Under the pieces are notes generated by a model that made no database searches, was not told where the DNA came from, and worked only from the letters and a program-made list of their open reading frames with translations. From positions 1 through 31,572 of the forward strand of contig CANRHA010000001.1 of assembly GCA_947630315.1 (NCBI GenBank): a stretch of DNA of 31,572 bases, read 5' to 3'. Numbering within the stretch: the stretch's first letter is position 1; every line of letters starts with the position of its first letter. The position numbers and the translations under genes are program-made. The DNA is from an uncultured Clostridia bacterium (GTDB lineage Bacteria; Bacillota; Clostridia; Oscillospirales; Ruminococcaceae). Positions 951 to 9,919 of the stretch are shown piece after piece.

Positions 951-1112
951 ATGAAAAACAGAAAAAGAAATGACTCTTGGAAAGATTTTAAAGACAACAA
1001 AAGGAGCCGCACACCTTCAACGGCAGCTGTGTTTACTGATGATATTTTGTCCTGGCTTCCAAAGGGAATACTAGAGGAGTGCACAGCGGAGGTGAGGCCA
1101 TATGGACAATAG
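951..1112 (+). CDS. Small hypothetical protein (53 aa, MKNRKRNDSW...VRPYGQ), absent from the ORF track
   Basis: GGAGGTGA at 937-944 then ATG 951; fills the gap between HNH and the next gene and overlaps its start. Confidence 0.55.
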   Translation: MKNRKRNDSWKDFKDNKRSRTPSTAAVFTDDILSWLPKGILEECTAEVRPYGQ

Positions 1113-1497
1113 AGACGTAAGCTTGAGTATACTGCAATGCACAAAGAAAATGCTAGGACTTCTACCGGAGATGAAAGAATTCGACGTAGATATCTTAGCA
1201 TTAATTAATTCTGCAATGTTCGCATTGTTTGAGATCGGAGTCATACCAAATGGAGTTGATTATTCTGTAAAAGACGAAGATACACAATACACTGACATAT
1301 TCAGTGGTAAGAATTCAGACAAGATCATCTCGGCCGTTAAGACTTACATTTTTATTAAGGTAAAACTGGGATTTGACATAACGACAACACCAAGTTCCGT
1401 TATAGAAGTTTACAAAGAACAAGAAAAAGAATTGGAATGGCGGTTAAGTGTTCTTGTCGACCATAATGATACGTTTGATGAGGAGGAGAGTAAATGA
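1102..1497 (+). CDS. Head-tail adaptor/connector protein
   Basis: SILQCTKKMLG...FDVDILALINSAMFAL...VKTYIFIKVKLGFD...KELEWRL pattern of gp6/gp15-like adaptors; SD GGAGGTG upstream. Confidence 0.65.
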   Translation: MDNRDVSLSILQCTKKMLGLLPEMKEFDVDILALINSAMFALFEIGVIPNGVDYSVKDEDTQYTDIFSGKNSDKIISAVKTYIFIKVKLGFDITTTPSSVIEVYKEQEKELEWRLSVLVDHNDTFDEEESK

Positions 1498-2000
1498 ATC
1501 AGTTTGAAAATTTTTACGAAAACTTAAACACTCCTTTGTCAAATGAACAAACCACTTATTTACCGTGTGTACTCGCATCAGAACTCTACCACCACGGAAT
1601 CCTTGGACAAAAATGGGGAGTAAGAAGATACCAGAATAAAGATGGAAGTCTTACTGAAAAAGGACGTAAGAGATACGTAAAAATGCGTAGTCAAGGTAAG
1701 AAATTGACGGAAGAAGACGCAGAGGCTTACAAGAAGTCTATGGTCAAAGCATTGAAATCCGGGAATGCGAAAGAAATAAAAAAATTTAAGTACGATCTTG
1801 ACAGACCAGAGATAGAAGAAGCTATAAACAGAATAAATACATACGTTAAACTAGAAGATACTGAGAGATGGCAGACTTCTGGTTTAAGAAAATTGGAAAG
1901 GGCTACGAAATCACTAAATATAATAAATGATGCGACATCAGCAGGTCTTACAACATACGACAATTACAAAAAGATAAGAAAGATCTTATTTAAAGAGTAA
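1494..2000 (+). CDS. Basic protein with SELYHHGILGQKWGVRRYQNKDGSLT leader (DUF7211-like as recalled); putative virion-internal protein
   Basis: Motif seen directly; Lys/Arg-rich; overlaps the upstream stop. Confidence 0.75.
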   Translation: MNQFENFYENLNTPLSNEQTTYLPCVLASELYHHGILGQKWGVRRYQNKDGSLTEKGRKRYVKMRSQGKKLTEEDAEAYKKSMVKALKSGNAKEIKKFKYDLDRPEIEEAINRINTYVKLEDTERWQTSGLRKLERATKSLNIINDATSAGLTTYDNYKKIRKILFKE

Positions 2001-2015
2001 AAAGAGGATGATAGT

Positions 2016-3758
2016 ATGCCACTTTCAAATACTGCCGTGCCGAAATACTACGGTCAATTTAGAGACGCTGTTATAAGAGGTGAAATTCCAGTATGCTCCA
2101 CAATTTCAATGGAGATGAACAGAATCGACGATCTTATACGGAATCCAGGTGTATGGTACGACGAAGACGCAGTCGAAGGATACATTCGTTTCTGTGAAAA
2201 TGAGCTTACTCTTACTGATGGAAGTGACTTGCATCTTTTGGACAGCTTTAAACTATGGGCTGAGGAAATTTATGGTTGGTATTACTTCGTAAATCGTAGT
2301 GTGTACGTGCCTAACAAAAAAGGCGGAGGAAGATACGTAAGAAAGAGTATCAAAAAACGTCTTGTCAATAAACAGTATTTAATAGTAGCAAGAGGCGCTG
2401 CAAAATCTTTGTATGCTTCTTCTCATCACGGCTACGGGTTAACCGTTGACACGTCTTCGACCCACCAAGTTTGCACAGCACCAACTATGGATATGGCTGA
2501 AGAGACTATGAATCCACTTAGGACTGCCATAGCAAGATCCAGAGGTCCTTTCTTTAAATTTTTGACAGAAGGTTCTTTACACAATACAACTGGCGATAGG
2601 TCTTTAAGACAAAAATTGGCGTCCACAAAGAAGGGAATAGAATGCACGATCACAAATTCGCTTCTTGAGGTTCGTCCAATGTCAATAAACAAACTTCAGG
2701 GTTTAAGAAACAAGTACTCATCTGTTGACGAGTGGCTGTCAGGAGATACAAGAGAAGACGTTGTCGGCGCCTTGGAACAGGGAGCTTCAAAAATTGACGA
2801 CTACTTAATCTTGGCTACTTCATCAGAAGGAACTTTAAGAAACGGTATCGGCGATGCTATGAAAATTGAGCTTATGCAAATTCTTAGAGGGGAATACATA
2901 GCTCCTAATGTTTCTATATGGTGGTATAAGCTTGACGACGTGAAGGAAGTTCCAGATCCTGAGATGTGGGCTAAGGCAAATCCAAATATTGGTATAACAG
3001 TTAGCTACGAAACTTACCAGTTGGATGTTGAAAGAGCGGAGCATTCACCAGCGTCAAGGAATGATATTTTGGCAAAGAGATTCGGAATACCGATGGAGGG
3101 CTACACGTACTTCTTTACTTATGACGAGACGAAACCGCACAAGGAAAGAAGCTATTGGCAGATGCCTTGTTCACTCGGAATAGACCTTTCTCAGGGAGAT
3201 GACTTCTGTGCTTTTACTTTTATGTTCCCTTTACCAAGGGAGTGCTTCGGTATAAAGGTACGGTCTTATATTTCTGAGAGGACTATGATGAATCTTCAGC
3301 CTGCAATGAGATTGAAGTATCAGGAGTTCATAGATGAGGGGAGTTTAATAGTTCTTCCGGGGACCATTCTGGATATGAATGATGTTTACGACGATCTTGA
3401 CAATATGATTGTAAATTTTGGCTATGATGTCAGATGTGTTGGATATGACCCGTACAATGCAAAAGATTTCATAGCAAGATGGTCTAGCGAGAATGGGCCT
3501 TTCGGAATCGAGAAAGTAATTCAAGGAGCAAAAACAGAATCGGTTCCCTTGGGCGAACTTAAAAAAATGGCAGCAGACAGACTTCTGTTATTTGACGAAG
3601 CTCTTATGTCTTTTGCTATGGGAAACTGTGTCGTTCTCGAAGACACAAACGGTAACAGGAAACTATTTAAGCTACGGTCAGACCAGAAGATAGACAATGT
3701 ATCAGCGATGATGGACGCTTTCGTAGCTTACAAACTTAATAAGGATGCTTTTGAATAG
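2016..3758 (+). CDS. terL: Terminase large subunit
   Basis: 580 aa; Walker A-like VARGAAKS, Walker B-like SSVDE, nuclease motifs GIDLSQGDDF, VGYDPYNA and KIDNVSAMMDA. Confidence 0.95.
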   Translation: MPLSNTAVPKYYGQFRDAVIRGEIPVCSTISMEMNRIDDLIRNPGVWYDEDAVEGYIRFCENELTLTDGSDLHLLDSFKLWAEEIYGWYYFVNRSVYVPNKKGGGRYVRKSIKKRLVNKQYLIVARGAAKSLYASSHHGYGLTVDTSSTHQVCTAPTMDMAEETMNPLRTAIARSRGPFFKFLTEGSLHNTTGDRSLRQKLASTKKGIECTITNSLLEVRPMSINKLQGLRNKYSSVDEWLSGDTREDVVGALEQGASKIDDYLILATSSEGTLRNGIGDAMKIELMQILRGEYIAPNVSIWWYKLDDVKEVPDPEMWAKANPNIGITVSYETYQLDVERAEHSPASRNDILAKRFGIPMEGYTYFFTYDETKPHKERSYWQMPCSLGIDLSQGDDFCAFTFMFPLPRECFGIKVRSYISERTMMNLQPAMRLKYQEFIDEGSLIVLPGTILDMNDVYDDLDNMIVNFGYDVRCVGYDPYNAKDFIARWSSENGPFGIEKVIQGAKTESVPLGELKKMAADRLLLFDEALMSFAMGNCVVLEDTNGNRKLFKLRSDQKIDNVSAMMDAFVAYKLNKDAFE

Positions 3759-3767
3759 GTGATATTT

Positions 3768-4565
3768 ATGTATGAACTAAAACATTCAGCCAAGGGAACG
3801 CATTGGTCGAAGAAAGACCATAAGTATGTTAAAAAAGAGAACGGAAGATATTATTACAAAGATGATATGAAACAGAAGCAGATAGATGAGAAAGATCAGC
3901 GTTCGGAAGCAGAGATGCTGGAAGCTCAAGCTACAAAAGAAACTGAAGATTTTTTTAAATATATGGGGATTTCACCTGACGACCCTTTAAGAGACGAAGT
4001 CTTTAATCATTATAAAGAAGGTAATCTTAATAAGCTATACGAAATGAGAGGTAAAATCAGTCCAAAAGAAGCAGAACGACAGAAAGAAGCTAATAAGGAA
4101 AAAACTCAACACAACCGATTAAGAGCCGCGGACCAAGATCCGGCGGTTACAGGTAGAAATAAGTCTAAAGGATCATCGGCAGACGCGAAAAGGTGGTCTG
4201 AGTTTTTAGTAAAAAAAGAACAGCAGAAAAAAACCGTTGACAGTGCAATAACAAAAGCAAAAGATGCACTAAATAGCAGTAAAGCCGTTAAAGCAGCTAA
4301 ATCGGTAGCTAAGGCTTATGCGGAAGTTAAAAATGAAAAAGTAAAAGAACACAATCAAAAAGAGTTGCAATACAGTCATATGAATGAAGCGACTAAGAAA
4401 GTCGGAGAGACAAAAATAATGGGTAGTACGAAACAACACACTGCTGGAGAGTTGACAACAAAAGTGAATGCATCAGCTCAAAAAGCAAGACTTAACCGAG
4501 CAAATTCAAAAAAATGGGACGATAAAGGTTACAGGAATCCATCAGACAAAAGATATTACGAATAA
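3768..4565 (+). CDS. Lys-rich protein with ELKHSAKGTHWSKKDHKYVKK leader
   Basis: Long ORF, SD in junction repeat; first ~25 codons nearly identical to those of 5100-5564. Confidence 0.75.
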   Translation: MYELKHSAKGTHWSKKDHKYVKKENGRYYYKDDMKQKQIDEKDQRSEAEMLEAQATKETEDFFKYMGISPDDPLRDEVFNHYKEGNLNKLYEMRGKISPKEAERQKEANKEKTQHNRLRAADQDPAVTGRNKSKGSSADAKRWSEFLVKKEQQKKTVDSAITKAKDALNSSKAVKAAKSVAKAYAEVKNEKVKEHNQKELQYSHMNEATKKVGETKIMGSTKQHTAGELTTKVNASAQKARLNRANSKKWDDKGYRNPSDKRYYE

Positions 4566-4580
4566 AAAAGGTGATAGCTT

Positions 4581-5090
4581 ATGAATTATGAATCAGAACT
4601 TTACCACCACGGTGTTATAGGAATGAAGTGGGGTCTAAGAAGATACCAGCCATATCCTAGTGGTAAAAAGGGAAAAGAAATAGGAGAAGCCGCCTTAGCA
4701 GAACAGCGTAGAAAAATAGCACAGCGAAATATAAAGAAAGCTGCCTTTTCTTATGAGTCTATGGATACCACAAAAAAGAAAGAAGCTCAGAGGCAAATTC
4801 GTAAAGCTATGAAGTATCTCGGCGAAAAAGAAGTTGACCGAATAATGAAAATGGAAAAATCCAAAGACATTATTTACACTACTATGCTGACAAGAGCTAT
4901 GATAGTAGCAGGTTCAACAGCTATTGGAAGTGCTATTGGAACTTGCGGCGGTAAGCTTATAGGTACGGCTTTGGCTAGTTCTACAGCATTAAAAATTCCC
5001 GTAAGAGCAGCTTCTATGAAAGTGATTACACAGGCTAATTACATAACCAGGCCGTATAGAGATACTATAAACTTTTTAAGAAATCAATAG
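4581..5090 (+). CDS. Protein with SELYHHGVIGMKWGLRRYQPYP leader and a small-residue hydrophobic segment (AMIVAGSTAIGSAIGTCGG)
   Basis: AAGGTGA SD, ATG 4581; motif seen directly. Confidence 0.75.
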   Translation: MNYESELYHHGVIGMKWGLRRYQPYPSGKKGKEIGEAALAEQRRKIAQRNIKKAAFSYESMDTTKKKEAQRQIRKAMKYLGEKEVDRIMKMEKSKDIIYTTMLTRAMIVAGSTAIGSAIGTCGGKLIGTALASSTALKIPVRAASMKVITQANYITRPYRDTINFLRNQ

Positions 5091-5099
5091 GTGATATTT

Positions 5100-5564
5100 A
5101 TGCAAGAATTACAACATTCAGCCAAGGGAACTTCTTGGTCTAAGAAAGACCATAAGTATGTTAAAAAAGAAGGTACTAAGTACTGGTATCCAACTCCTAA
5201 AAAACAGACCAAATCTGAAAGTTTTGCTAAAAGAGCCGTAGACTACGGAAAAGACCAGAGTGCCCCTCCTATGGCTGGTTTTGCTGCTAGAGCGTTAAAA
5301 AGAGGAGAAGAAAAAAAAGGAACTCGTGGATTTGCGTCGTCAGCTGTTAACTACGGAAAAATGAAAGTTACAGAGAAAGCTATTAAAGATTCTTTCGAGA
5401 AAGTCAAGAATAAAATTGTAAGCAAAAACGAAAAGAAGCAGTCGTTTACCGATAAAATCAGCAACGCATTACAGAAGGTTGGAAAACAGAAAGTAACGAA
5501 ATCTGATAAGAAAGAATCGTTAATGGATAAGATTGGCAATGCTATAAAGAATATTATTAGGTGA
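5100..5564 (+). CDS. Lys-rich protein with ELQHSAKGTSWSKKDHKYVKK leader and short internal repeats
   Basis: Junction repeat SD; repeats FAKRAVDYGK/FASSAVNYGK and SFTDKISNAL/SLMDKIGNAI. Confidence 0.75.
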   Translation: MQELQHSAKGTSWSKKDHKYVKKEGTKYWYPTPKKQTKSESFAKRAVDYGKDQSAPPMAGFAARALKRGEEKKGTRGFASSAVNYGKMKVTEKAIKDSFEKVKNKIVSKNEKKQSFTDKISNALQKVGKQKVTKSDKKESLMDKIGNAIKNIIR

Positions 5565-5569
5565 TATTT

Positions 5570-6505
5570 ATGTACACTTCAGAACTTTATCATTATGGAA
5601 TCATCGGTCAAAAATGGTACGTTCGACGTTTTCAGCCATATCCAGATAATTATTCAGGAAAAGGAGTATTTAAGGGGAAGAAATATCCGGATCAAGATCT
5701 TAGAAAAGACCATACTGTAAAATCCGGAACTAAAATCTATACCGTAACAACAAATCCAAATCAGAGAAACAAGGATTTTATATATGTATCATATACTCCT
5801 CCCGATAGAGACCATTACAAAGCTGGATATATAAGAACCAGAGACAAAGCAAAAAAAGCGTATGAACAGTAATACCAATTGACAAAAGATCTAAAAGTTG
5901 CTGGCGAAAAAACCGTCACGGATACTTTTAATAAATATTGCAGTAGAAAAACGTATACTGAAGAAATTAACCAATCTATATTAAAATTTGCTAAAATAAA
6001 TACAAAATACGACACTAAGTTAAGTGCGGTTGAGTATCAAGAATTAGTTGCCAAATTAAGCAATAGATTACACGATAAAATAGAATATACTCTTAAGGGA
6101 GAAACGAAGACTGGAACTTATGGAAATTACCTGAAAGAGTATAAAGAAGCTCTTAAGGATATGGTTATTGACTACGCTGCTGAGTTAACGATGCCGTTGT
6201 CGAAAGCCGAGATGGGGTTAATAGCTTTAGGATATGCACCAAAGACAAAAGAAAAACTAATAAAAGAACTAAAAAAGCAAGGCTATAATTCTATGACCGA
6301 CGTTGCAAGTGTTGGCGGAAAAAAGAATCTGCAAATAGAAGGATACGACCCATTGATAGTGTTTGACAAGGATGCATATCAATTCAATAAAAACAAAACA
6401 GTAAGCGCACAAGAAGAAAACCGGTCAGGATATAGATATACGAAATGGCGTGGAGATGTACAAAGACTTAAGAATAGGGAAAAAGATAAGTTTGAGTGGA
6501 GGTAA
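5570..6505 (+). pseudogene. ELYH-leader gene split by one in-frame TAA (5870-5872); possibly ADP-ribosyltransferase-like fold
   Basis: Track ORFs 5561-5872 and 5879-6505 are in the same frame, separated by TAA TAC CAA, with no SD before TTG 5879. Fold call is a weak motif inference. Confidence 0.6.
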
Positions 6506-6511
6506 AACATC

Positions 6512-6831
6512 GTGAACACTTCAGAACTTTACCACTACGGCCGAAAAGGTATGAAATGGTATCAGCATATTTATGGAGAAGCAGATTCAAGAGCTAAGTA
6601 TAACAATGACAAAGACAAAAAAAACAGTCGTCTTCTTATAAACTTTATAAACGCGGTTTGGAAATATTAAAAAAGTACAATCTAACTTTATTTCCAAGTC
6701 GCAAAGCAGTTATTAGAAGTATGATAGTGAATGAGCAAATGGGTTTAATTTGGCGTCTAAATGCTGCTAATTATAACAACTTCATTCAGCAAACGAACTT
6801 TAATGCTATGCGTATGACTATGCCTATGTAA
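6512..6831 (+). CDS. ELYH-leader gene absent from the track: 52 aa as written (6512-6670), 106 aa via a -1 shift in the A8 run (6617-6624)
   Basis: GGAGG at 6498-6502, GTG 6512, MNTSELYHYGRKGMKWYQHIYG. The -1 frame is open 6610-6831 and fills the gap to the portal RBS. Confidence 0.65.
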
Positions 6832-6857
6832 TAAAAAAATAATAGGAGAAATTCAAA

Positions 6858-8108
6858 ATGGCGATAATATTTAACAGGTTTAAGAATGCTATAAGTGCAT
6901 TTATGGGCAGAGATCCAACAACGGTGCCTTACTATGAATACGGATCGGGTTCTGCATATAGGCCGGCACCTAGACTTTCGACGAATACACTTCGTTCAAT
7001 TGTTACCTCTGTCTATAACCAGATAGCTGTAGACGCAGCTGCTATAGACATAAAGCACGTTAGACTTGAAGAAGAAAAATACAAGGAAACCATATATGAC
7101 TCGCTAAACAGAGTTCTATCAAAAGAAGCCAACATCGACCAAACAGGAAGGAAGCTCATACAGTATGCTGTACTGTCTATGCTCGACGAGGGTGTTGTAG
7201 CATTGATACCGACATTAGCCGATGTATCTGATATTTTCAATGAGCATCCAAATAAAATTTATGAGGTCAGAGTTGCAAAAATAGTAGAATGGTTTCCTAG
7301 ACATATACGTGTTGAAGTTTATAATGACTTAACTGGACAGCCAGTTCAATTGGTTTATAAGAAAGAAATTTGTCCAATTATTGAAAATCCATTTTATAAC
7401 ATTATGAACGAACCTAACTCAACAGCAAAAAGATTGATGAAGGTTCTGGGACAATTGGATAAAACAAACGAGTCTAACAGTGCTGGAAAACTGGATTTAA
7501 TTATTCAATTACCGTACACAATTAAGTCCGAAGCGCGGCGTAAACAAGCAGAAATGCGTCGTACGGAAATAGAAAAGCAACTTACGGGGTCTCAGTATGG
7601 TATCGCATATACAGATGCCACTGAGCATATAGTTCAGCTTAATAGAAGTCTAGAGAACAACCTCTGGGAACAAGCAGAGAAGTTAAAAGACGATCTATTC
7701 AACCAATTAGGTTTCTCACAGTCTATCTTCGACGGAACAGCCGACGAAAAGACTATGCTGAACTACTATAATAGAACTATAGAGCCTATCCTCACAACGA
7801 TAACCGAGGAGATTGAGCGTAAATGGCTCACAACAACAGCAACGTCACAAGGCCAGGCTATTAAGTTCTTTAGAGATCCGTTTAAGTTAGTTCCTGTAGC
7901 TCAAATAGCTGAGATAGCAGATAAGTTTACAAGGAACGAGATAATGACGTCTAACGAAATGAGATCTGTGATGGGATTAAGACCCGCCAACGATCCCAAG
8001 GCAGACGAATTACGCAATAGTAATTTAAATCATCCAGATGAGAAGTTAGAGTTACAGCAACAAAATTCAAAATCAACAAATAATTTAGAAAAGGAGGAGA
8101 CCGAATAA
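6858..8108 (+). CDS. Portal protein
   Basis: 416 aa between terL and protease/capsid; SIVTSVYNQIAVDAAAIDIKHVRL, GKLDLIIQLPY, DKFTRNEIMTSNEMRSVMG. Confidence 0.9.
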   Translation: MAIIFNRFKNAISAFMGRDPTTVPYYEYGSGSAYRPAPRLSTNTLRSIVTSVYNQIAVDAAAIDIKHVRLEEEKYKETIYDSLNRVLSKEANIDQTGRKLIQYAVLSMLDEGVVALIPTLADVSDIFNEHPNKIYEVRVAKIVEWFPRHIRVEVYNDLTGQPVQLVYKKEICPIIENPFYNIMNEPNSTAKRLMKVLGQLDKTNESNSAGKLDLIIQLPYTIKSEARRKQAEMRRTEIEKQLTGSQYGIAYTDATEHIVQLNRSLENNLWEQAEKLKDDLFNQLGFSQSIFDGTADEKTMLNYYNRTIEPILTTITEEIERKWLTTTATSQGQAIKFFRDPFKLVPVAQIAEIADKFTRNEIMTSNEMRSVMGLRPANDPKADELRNSNLNHPDEKLELQQQNSKSTNNLEKEETE

Positions 8109-9919
8109 TGGAATGGGATTTTTGTGGTTATGCTACTAAGAATGACCTTCGATGCGATGATGGTAGAATAATTCGTAAAGATGCCTTTAAACCACAGGAT
8201 GGAACGAAAGTCCCGCTATGCTGGAATCATCAGCATAATAGTCCGCAAGATGTGCTCGGACACGCAGTTCTTGAAAATCGCGATGACGGTGTATACGCTT
8301 ATTGCAAGTTTAATAATACGCCCAGCGGTCAGGATGCAAAAGAGCAGGTTAAGAATGGCGATATAGAGTCACTTAGCATCTGGGCTAATAACTTAGTTCA
8401 TAAGGGACGAGACGTTGTTCACGGTGTTATACGTGAGGTTAGCTTGGTTTTTGCCGGAGCGAATCCAGGGGCATTTATAGAATCTGTAATGGCTCACTCA
8501 GAGCCTATGGATGAAGGCGATGACGAAGGGATATTCTACGCTGGTGAAGGTATAGAGCTCTACCACGCAGCGGAGGAAACCAAAAGCGAAAATAGCAAGA
8601 AGGAGGAATCAGACGTGGCAGACAAAAATGATAGCGGTGAAAAGACCGTTCAGGAAGTAATGGATACCCTGAACGAGGATCAGAAAACAGCAGTTGCAAT
8701 TGTCATAGCGCAGGCAGTAGCGGACGCAACGGACGGAGATGAAGATGAGGAGGGAGAAGAAATGACGCACAGTGCTTTTGAAAAAGGCGCACAGATGAGT
8801 TATGATAACTCATACGCAGCAGCGAAAGAAGCTTTTGCGGATTTGCTTGACACAGCAAAGAAAAATAAGGTTAGTTCATTAAGGGAGCTTGTTCATTCGG
8901 CTTTCGAAGAGGAAGAAGAATTGATGCACGCTCTCGATCTTAAGGGAATGGAGCAACCGACTATAAGAACAAATCAGAATTATGGCTTTAGGGATCCTGA
9001 GATGCTCTTCCCTGATTACAAAGCAACAAGTACAACACCCGAGTGGATCTCAAGGGATATGGCTTGGGTTACGAGAGTTCTTGGCGGTGTTAAGCACGTT
9101 CCGTTTACAAGAATTAAGTCACTTTATGCTAACATTACAGAAGATGAGGCGAGGGCTAGGGGATACATTCGCGGCAAACAGAAGAAGGAAGAGTTCTTCA
9201 AAGTTATCAAGAGGACAACAGATCCTCAGACGATTTACAAACTTCAGAAGCTGGATCGTGACGACATAATCGATATTACAGACTTCGACGTTGTAATGTG
9301 GATTAAGGGTGAGATGCGTGTAATGCTTAATGAGGAAATTGCAAGAGCGATTCTTCTTGGTGACGGCAGGACAGACGAGGACGAGAGTAAGATCAAAGAA
9401 GATCATATCAGGCCTGTAGTAAAGGACGTTCCTTTATTCAATGTTATAGTTCCTGTTACAGTTGCGGCAGACGCAGATGCTATGGATATTTCCAAGGCGT
9501 TCATCCGCGCGGTTATTAAGTCACGTAAGGACTACAAGGGCTCAGGCAATCCCACACTTTGGACAAACGATGACGTTCTTAGTGACGCGCTTCTTCTTGA
9601 GGATGCTATTGATCATCGTCTCTACAAGACAGAAGCAGAGTTGGCAACAGCATTAAGAGTTAAGGATATCGTTACTGTTGAACCTATGGAGGGTTATCAG
9701 ATCGAGGACGATAAGAAAACTAAGAGAGATCTTCTTGGCGTTGTATGGAATCCTGTTGACTATACAGTTGGTACAAACAAGGGCGGTCAGATAACGACAT
9801 TCGATGACTTCGATATCGACTTCAACCAGTATAAGTATTTGATTGAGACGAGGATGTCAGGTGCTCTAACTAAGCCGTTCTCAGCAATGACATATTACCT
9901 GGTGAAATCGGGGGAATAA
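8108..9919 (+). CDS. Prohead protease-scaffold-major capsid protein fusion (HK97-like)
   Basis: N-terminal HK97-type protease (VPLCWNHQH, SLSIWA, IREVSLVFAGANPGA), acidic scaffold-like middle, capsid domain (LNEEIARAILLGDG, FDDFDIDFNQYKYLIETRMSGAL). Confidence 0.9.
   Translation: MEWDFCGYATKNDLRCDDGRIIRKDAFKPQDGTKVPLCWNHQHNSPQDVLGHAVLENRDDGVYAYCKFNNTPSGQDAKEQVKNGDIESLSIWANNLVHKGRDVVHGVIREVSLVFAGANPGAFIESVMAHSEPMDEGDDEGIFYAGEGIELYHAAEETKSENSKKEESDVADKNDSGEKTVQEVMDTLNEDQKTAVAIVIAQAVADATDGDEDEEGEEMTHSAFEKGAQMSYDNSYAAAKEAFADLLDTAKKNKVSSLRELVHSAFEEEEELMHALDLKGMEQPTIRTNQNYGFRDPEMLFPDYKATSTTPEWISRDMAWVTRVLGGVKHVPFTRIKSLYANITEDEARARGYIRGKQKKEEFFKVIKRTTDPQTIYKLQKLDRDDIIDITDFDVVMWIKGEMRVMLNEEIARAILLGDGRTDEDESKIKEDHIRPVVKDVPLFNVIVPVTVAADADAMDISKAFIRAVIKSRKDYKGSGNPTLWTNDDVLSDALLLEDAIDHRLYKTEAELATALRVKDIVTVEPMEGYQIEDDKKTKRDLLGVVWNPVDYTVGTNKGGQITTFDDFDIDFNQYKYLIETRMSGALTKPFSAMTYYLVKSGE

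Follow-up and report, generated by a model that had tools for sequence, protein, structure and literature searches.

A 31,572-nucleotide stretch of DNA from an uncultured Clostridia bacterium, referred to below as the window, carries a phage virion module lying entirely on one strand and makes up the whole of contig C1 of a genome bin (1.88 Mb, 290 contigs). It is the head-assembly module of a siphophage belonging to a lineage that crosses phyla and includes Lactococcus phage 1706, the Faecalibacterium phage FP_oengus and phages of Arthrobacter, Gordonia and Streptomyces. Within this module a single 603-residue chain (8108-9919) joins an S78 prohead protease, an acidic linker and the major capsid protein, and six basic proteins encoded upstream of it (p168, p268, p169, p157, p103 and p52) bear a tag built around a histidine. 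The same hydrophobic-x-His motif studs the spacer between protease and capsid protein, so that the tag most likely serves to earmark proteins for loading into the head. Taken as a whole, the sequence evidence leans towards a system in which the shared His-site tag would designate cargo for the head formed by the protease-capsid fusion, and in which the linker of that fusion would be cut after His.

Histidine motifs in six N-termini and in the fusion linker

A preliminary description of this DNA had placed E-[LM]-x-H sites in the N-terminal parts of the six proteins and in the linker. A six-frame scan recovered all ten of them, with Glu codons at 1581, 3774, 4596, 5106, 5582 and 6524 in the proteins and at 8555, 8759, 8885 and 8918 in the linker, and the related VMAH-S lies right after the protease domain (fusion residues 127-131), as had been described. 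The frequency of the motif was compared with that obtained after shuffling the residues within each protein (5000 shuffles; 20000 for the linker alone). The genes contain 11 E[LM]xH motifs compared to a shuffled mean of 0.91, a count reached in 0/5000 shuffles, and six proteins have one within their first 36 residues where 0.12 are expected (again 0/5000). The linker alone holds four (0/20000); each of its five histidines is preceded by a hydrophobic residue at -2 (p ~0.0009), and four of the five by a Glu three residues ahead. A chance origin of the motif is ruled out by this shuffling.

The description of the accessory proteins as mostly very basic was borne out, with isoelectric points (pI) of 9.3-10.1 for all six; the fusion is acidic (pI 4.75). 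Their motif is indeed near the start in five of the six, the exception being p168, in which it begins at residue 30. The likeness between the proteins, moreover, goes beyond the tetrapeptide: p168, p169, p103 and p52 share a module of ~30 residues corresponding to DUF7211, and p268 and p157 share a variant module of ~50 residues, called here class B.

Conservation of the linker sites among fusion homologues

The fusion (phrog_3270, 677 bits) begins with the S78 prohead protease domain (8108..8497, plus strand as for all genes below, residues 1-130), which matches PF04586 with 33.4 bits for a cut-off of 21 and ends in VMAH↓S (nt 8486-8497; here and below the arrow marks the bond after His, which is taken as P1). 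The presumed catalytic residues H41 and S90, together with H105, are invariant in 52 sequences, as are H130, just after the protease domain, and H274, just before the capsid N-arm; H153 is kept in more than 90%. The acidic, scaffold-like linker (8498..8929, residues 131-274) contains the putative sites ELYH↓A (8555-8566), EMTH↓S (8759-8770), ELVH↓S (8885-8896) and ELMH↓A (8918-8929). The remaining part (8930..9919, residues 275-603) is the predicted mature HK97-fold major capsid protein of 329 residues. PF05065 scores 18.3 bits on the fusion, under its cut-off of 24.2, and Foldseek matched the C-terminal domain to the capsids of a gene transfer agent (GTA), a Gordonia phage, HK97 and T5 and to encapsulins with a probability of 1.00 and E values down to 3e-9. 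No match to the fusion was returned when solved structures were searched by sequence. In an AlphaFold2 (AF2) model of the fusion, protease residues 1-129 have a predicted local distance difference test score (pLDDT) >90, helices are formed by residues 181-208, 232-253 and 258-265, and a confident capsid domain extends from about residue 297. The stretches 130-180, 208-236 and 268-296, which hold VMAH, ELYH, EMTH and ELMH, have a pLDDT <50, and ELVH (residues 260-263) sits at the end of helix 258-265.

Fusions of this type were detected by tblastn in 244 phage records. From 80 IMG/VR loci that were fetched, 60 distinct full-length fusions, 42-62% identical to that of the window, were aligned. 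Of the 369 histidines in their linkers, 91% are accompanied by L/M/I/V/F/Y at P3 and 84% by S/A/G/N at P1', against a background of 24% in either case; for the 178 histidines of their capsid domains the values are 28% and 11%. The enrichment that the preliminary description expected of homologous scaffolds was found, since full sites number 256 in the 60 linkers for a shuffled mean of 22.5, and in the mature capsid domains they are depleted (5 versus 13.4 expected, P <= 0.002). The window's own mature capsid domain and its portal protein each contain 0 hydrophobic-x-His-small sites. Eight residues account for P1' in 357/369 linker sites, and neither an aromatic residue nor His is among them.

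Homologous sites are present in the linkers of all 60 relatives. The positions of many of them vary between clades, and the hydrophobic-x-His-small rule is still kept. One recurring site lies directly past the protease domain (VMAH↓S in the window), a second ~20 residues further on (IELYH↓A/S), and one or more precede a conserved scaffold helix. Others are EMKH↓NVF (EMTH↓SAF in the window), VLSH↓A/S, which the window lacks, and lastly VLAH↓S/A/G (ELMH↓A in the window), just ahead of the capsid N-arm. The general rule is thus wider than the E-[LM]-x-H consensus first put forward: it requires a hydrophobic residue, any residue and His followed by a small residue, the Glu at P4 being a local habit of the window.

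Head proteases of the assemblin fold read a hydrophobic residue, any residue and P1 followed by a small residue, as in V/L/I-x-A↓S of herpesviruses, L/I-x-E↓ of T4 gp21 and F-N-K↓S of HK97. Since the linker motif has this shape, it is what would be expected of a protease site with His as a new P1. The earlier proposal that the linker motif is a protease site is supported by its strong conservation, its assemblin-type shape, its location mostly in predicted disorder and the invariant copy at the expected point of capsid release; that the cut falls after His is what we infer from these features, and we regard it as likely. A cut after His274 would release a 329-residue capsid protein with an N-arm of ~20 residues, a normal size for the HK97 fold.

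The DUF7211 and class B tag modules

The four proteins of the first group differ in how well they match DUF7211 (PF23847, cut-off 27 bits). The best match is p169 (4581..5090, pI 10.1, ELYH at nt 4596-4607), with 32.4 bits by hmmscan and 35.1 bits in the genome search; for p168 (1494..2000, pI 9.5), in which ELYH occupies residues 30-33 (nt 1581-1592) and is followed by the module, the values are 25.4 and 28.0 bits. The p103 protein (5570..5872, ELYH at nt 5582-5593) and the short p52 (6512..6670, ELYH at nt 6524-6535) are DUF7211-like: they remain under the cut-off, with 16.4-17.7 and 22.5-22.7 bits, and are recognised by a hidden Markov model (HMM) built here from the tags with E values of 1.3e-10 and 6e-7, respectively. 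No hit to DUF7211 was obtained for the class B proteins p268 (3768..4565, pI 9.6, ELKH at nt 3774-3785 followed by SAKGTHW) and p157 (5100..5564, pI 10.1, ELQH at nt 5106-5117). These two are 59% identical over 49 residues and share an N-terminus of ~50 residues, ELxH-SAKGTxW...KYVKKE.G.Y, which recurs in the closest relatives (loci L005-L013), for example as MLAH↓SAKGSTW and YLEH↓SAKGSTW.

A logo of 125 distinct tags has Y/E/F at P4, L (86%) or I (12%) at P3 and His at P1, followed by H/Y, G, I/V, K/L, G, M/Q, K/R/H, W, G, V/I, R, R, Y/F, Q, N, x, D, G, S/T, L and T, and later by G and basic residues. All 105 distinct cores of the form G..G[MQ][KRH]W[GY] are preceded by hydrophobic-x-His. The His lies at residue 6-34 in 118 of 120 database homologues, mostly at 7-17. 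In the AF2 model of p168, residues 1-35 have a pLDDT of ~50, the module and the helices reach 55-83, and values of 75-81 are found from about residue 41 on; the His would be accessible, with the module possibly forming a small folded unit. Database clusters matching p168 at E <= 0.001 number 5669, and none is named.

Tagged genes accompany the fusion in related phages

The preliminary description called for a test of whether the motif co-occurs in scaffolds and N-termini across related genomes, and such co-occurrence was indeed observed. Of the 42 related loci with at least 4 kb upstream of the fusion, 39 were found with the tag HMM to contain tagged open reading frames (ORFs) there, in the orientation of the fusion and numbering 1-7 per locus; these loci include Arthrobacter, Lactococcus and Faecalibacterium phages. 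The common order is connector, tagged gene, terminase, tagged gene(s), portal and fusion. In Arthrobacter phage Mudcat, gp7 carries two tags (VLAH↓YG and DLAH↓YG) and gp9 one (ILAH↓YG), and the linker of gp12 contains YIKH↓S, PLEH↓S, DLEH↓A, VLSH↓A and VLAH↓A. In FP_oengus a tagged gene lies between terminase and portal. In Lactococcus phage 1706, orf7, upstream of the terminase, has ILQH↓RG at His34 and ILLH↓KG at His183, and the linker of orf10 contains six sites. Several proteins have two to three tags, which gives them a polyprotein-like appearance.

Searching from the tag side gave the same association. Contig L089, reached in this way, encodes a 587-residue protein 49% identical to the fusion of the window, and contig L088 has the same left part and stops just past the tagged genes, before the portal. 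All phage records that were found with p168 and are long enough hold the fusion too. Since records found with p168 hold the fusion and loci found with the fusion hold tags, the link between tag and fusion holds in both search directions and in two phyla.

Payloads of the tagged proteins

What follows the tag differs widely among relatives, and some of the payload domains resemble effectors. A 911-residue protein (locus L069, 1149-3881) carries two tags, a glutamine-deamidase toxin domain of the papain fold and a helix-turn-helix (HTH) domain; a GNAT acetyltransferase is a further payload (P0088; L088, 6958-7524), and the CW_7 repeat is also found among the payloads. A Gly/Ala-rich, hydrophobic, membrane-like segment is present in 25 of 113 tagged ORFs of related loci, and hydropathy analysis revealed a weaker stretch of this kind at residues ~97-140 of p169 (window 4869-5000). 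Such segments suggest that some of these proteins may be membrane-active ejection proteins.

An RNA-polymerase-like protein is also among the tagged proteins, its tag being a degenerate form. In FP_oengus it starts with ..DILEH↓YGT..GRYPWGSG and in L089 with ..DILMH↓YGM. A homologue 48% identical to the L089 gene is encoded on contig C3 of the bin (L092, 2-1846, minus strand) and starts with MYYENELMH↓VGV..GRGSGRFGYGTG. Comparison with the syntenic FP_oengus and L089 makes it probable that, in the phage genome, contig C3 is located immediately upstream of the window, and its protein would probably be a seventh one of the same phage to bear an ELxH tag. Judged from their sequences, the features of the tagged proteins would fit proteins that are packaged and injected.

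Possible cleavage of the tag and alternative explanations

The view that tag and linker belong to one head-loading system has to be weighed against several observations. The linker-site statistics rest on related sequences, so that the counts are not independent. Within genomes, the residues at P4 and P2 of the tags show no covariation with those of the linker sites (observed value 1.49 versus 1.49 after permutation, p = 0.48), and the Glu-Leu flavour shared in the window is for this reason not a general rule. The residue after His in DUF7211 tags is His (68%), Tyr (17%) or else Phe or Trp, together more than 90%. The conserved ~30 residues of the tag stand after the His, and the 5-8 variable residues that precede it in five of the six window proteins are too few for a targeting leader that is removed (in p168, 32 residues precede it). 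The orf7 product of phage 1706, which bears two tags, is annotated as 'structural protein', and this is an annotation label only; in the phage 1706 study such labels were reportedly obtained by sodium dodecyl sulfate-polyacrylamide gel electrophoresis and liquid chromatography-tandem mass spectrometry. Literature searches, finally, retrieved no paper on DUF7211, on the GMKWG-type core, on the motif or on a His-specific head protease. All of these weigh against the interpretation preferred here.

As a consequence of the arrangement around the His, with so few residues before it and a conserved module after it, the tag cannot be a removable targeting peptide, and the preliminary description of the N-terminal stretch as a leader had to be abandoned. 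Its further proposal that the N-termini route payloads into the head finds support in the co-occurrence with the fusion across phyla and in the one tagged protein annotated as a virion structural protein, from which we infer loading; the DNA condensation that it named as one role of the payloads would be no more than a candidate function. Whether the tag is also cut is uncertain for the DUF7211 form, as its next residue is His or Tyr and not small as in the linker; cleavage after His is possible there, and we are somewhat inclined to doubt it. It is more likely for class B, where ELxH↓S has Ser after His as in the linker sites, than for the DUF7211 form ELYH↓H/Y. An alternative register, H-[H/Y]↓G, suits the rule of a small P1' but loses the hydrophobic P3, and is not preferred.

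These same features bear on the possibility that only the linker sites are cut and that the DUF7211 module is a cargo-loading peptide left intact, bound to the protease groove as a poor substrate or non-substrate, to the shell interior or to the acidic scaffold. The C-terminal tail of the HK97 protease and the cargo peptides of encapsulins provide models for such a docking tag. It would account for the His, Tyr, Phe or Trp at P1' of the tags where linker sites have small residues, for the short stretch before the His in most proteins, for a conserved part which would stay on the protein anyway, and for a module that is moderately ordered in the AF2 model. It does not readily explain why the hydrophobic-x-His start is invariant in 105/105 tag cores, why class B tags have Ser after His just as linker sites do, or why internal second and third copies of the tag resemble polyprotein junctions, and we consider it rather unlikely as a full account. 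When the p169 tag (residues 1-45) was modelled in complex with the protease domain (residues 1-135), the score was 0.02, a value that speaks neither for nor against binding. A role outside the head, be it recognition by a modifying enzyme, secretion or membrane insertion, or interaction with portal or terminase, would make the likeness to the linker sites fortuitous. The shared element amounts to three constrained positions, P4 and P2 do not covary and some tagged proteins have membrane-like segments, all as such a role would allow; yet the tags are tightly linked to head genes and to the fusion whichever is used as the query, the cargo is basic and the linker acidic, the tagged protein of phage 1706 is annotated as structural, and Pfam and PHROG scans of the virion module brought no candidate modifying enzyme to notice. 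We therefore hold a non-head role to be improbable.

The host protease Prp might cut the His sites in place of the phage protease. Prp reportedly trims ribosomal protein L27 and processes the capsid and scaffold proteins of Staphylococcus phage 80alpha. It is encoded in the bin beside an L27 with an N-terminal extension, in an L21-Prp-L27 operon (L090, contig C248, 1486-2390, minus strand), and the SAKG after the class B His loosely resembles the ASKKG of L27. The L27 of the bin, however, starts with MLRISMQFF↓AHKKG and thus has Phe-Phe before the cut and not x-His, the phage has its own S78 domain with invariant catalytic residues, and this His motif is also conserved in phages that infect Actinobacteria, a group not known to have Prp. 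Processing of the 80alpha type was rejected on the grounds of the different residues before the cut and of the conservation in actinobacterial phages, and a part for Prp appears very improbable. As a separate observation, the L21-Prp-L27 operon is typical of Firmicutes and, provided that the contigs were binned correctly, agrees with a host from this phylum.

Comparison with known head-assembly and cargo systems

The mechanism preferred here, in which the tag marks cargo for the head, is a variant of the capsid-targeting and prohead-protease theme of phage T4, from which it differs in the protease family, in the P1 residue and in having most of its tag after the cut. In T4, the capsid targeting sequence (CTS) of internal proteins IPI-III and Alt, which are processed by the gp21 protease, is an N-terminal signal shared by mostly basic, unrelated proteins and holds a site also present in the scaffold and capsid precursor, as is the case here. 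The two systems also resemble each other in the hydrophobic-x-P1 shape of the site and in a polymorphic cargo ejected with the DNA, which for the present phage is a prediction. By contrast, the protease is here of family S78 and fused to the capsid protein whereas that of T4 is S77, and the proposed P1 is His instead of Glu. The conserved module of ~30 residues lies mainly after the putative cut, and the phages are siphophages of Gram-positive hosts. The head proteins of phiKZ and SPN3US, cut at S/A/G-x-E, represent a case related to that of T4.

With heads of the HK97 type that use an S78 protease, the present system has in common the protease family, the HK97-fold capsid and the fusion of the scaffold to the capsid protein. 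In HK97 itself, cleavage follows Lys (F-N-K↓S), and the delta domain is not known to contain His; neither a His motif in the linker nor a tie to tagged proteins is mentioned for these heads in the literature searched. As to PF23847, p169 and p168 match the family and the tag logo agrees with its 25 residues; Pfam gives no function for it, whereas the present analysis connects it with a single head module and adds class B and the RNA polymerase tag to it. A constant targeting part combined with variable payloads and loading into an HK97-fold shell (again predicted here) are likewise features of the MuF and SPP1 gp7 toxins and of encapsulin cargo peptides. No MuF-like domain was detected in any tagged protein by Pfam or PHROG searches, and encapsulin cargo peptides, unlike the tag, are usually C-terminal and bind the shell.

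The fusion of protease and capsid protein has already been described (PMC5513430; bioRxiv 10.1101/842583), as has the lineage shared between phages of Actinobacteria and Firmicutes (bioRxiv 10.1101/842583). The Arthrobacter phage paper and the Giantsbane paper mention the fusion and say nothing of the motif. What is new here is the link between the DUF7211 tag and the His sites of the linker, the fusion and the cross-phylum lineage being published.

Gene organisation of the window

The genes follow the order HNH-like ORF, connector-like gene, p168, large terminase, p268, p169, p157, p103 (with p208), p52 (with p57), portal and fusion, with tail genes after them; the tagged block from p268 to p52 and p57 spans 3759-6831. 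The HNH-like ORF (414-944) was identified from its translation only. The head-tail connector-like virion protein (1102..1497; PF24829, 81 bits; phrog_4247) is encoded directly to the left of the first tagged gene, a conserved arrangement, and the same connector-first order is seen in Mudcat (gp6), phage 1706 (orf6), L088 and L089. It contains VDH↓N at 1453-1464 (residues 118-121), ten residues before its C-terminus; as this is not kept in Mudcat gp6 or 1706 orf6, it is probably due to chance. The large terminase subunit (2016..3758), which lies between tagged genes, was recognised from its translation and from a DNA match to annotated terminase genes, and its homologues in L088 and L089 carry PF20441. 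A near-identity DNA search of phage records with the window gave a short terminase match only. The portal protein (6858..8108) matches PF04860 with 63 bits and phrog_12.

Two pairs of ORFs in the tagged block deserve mention. A single in-frame TAA separates p103 (5570-5872) from p208 (5879-6505), and p103 may run on through it; p52 and p57 (6512-6831) overlap at a run of A. Either pair may be a single gene that is read through, frameshifted or broken. In addition, an identical junction, TAG GTGATATTTATG, comprising a stop codon, an AGGTGA box and an ATG, precedes p268 (3756-3770), p157 (5088-5102) and p103 (5558-5572). Because the AGGTGA box precedes each of them, the ATG codons at 3768, 5100 and 5570 are likely the true starts of these genes, in agreement with the coordinates given in the preliminary description. 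The repeated junction suggests that cassettes may have been duplicated or exchanged at the DNA level.

Proposed mechanism and significance

In the mechanism that we propose, the capsid subunit would be made as a chain of S78 protease, acidic scaffold linker and HK97-fold capsid protein. Once the shell has assembled, the protease would cut after the linker histidines, freeing the 329-residue capsid protein from Ala275 and reducing the scaffold to small acidic pieces. The tag module would bring the basic proteins into the procapsid, either by docking into the substrate groove of the ~400 protease domains that would line the shell or by binding the acidic scaffold. The cargo would stay with the DNA and would leave with it at infection.

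In its broadest form, which we put forward tentatively, DUF7211 would be a universal head-loading tag of Firmicutes and Actinobacteria siphophages, read by a capsid-fused S78 protease with a new specificity for His at P1. It would load an exchangeable arsenal of injected proteins composed of an RNA polymerase, effectors with a toxin fold or acetyltransferase activity, and membrane-active and DNA-binding basic proteins. If true, this would provide a function for a very large unnamed family and a new cleavage rule, His at P1, for head proteases of the HK97 type. Cultured relatives exist, namely phage 1706, FP_oengus and hundreds of SEA-PHAGES isolates, and foreign proteins might then be brought into these capsids by means of the tag. 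Such a system would further mean that common siphophages of gut, dairy and soil inject a variable set of proteins into their hosts, possibly including their own RNA polymerase.

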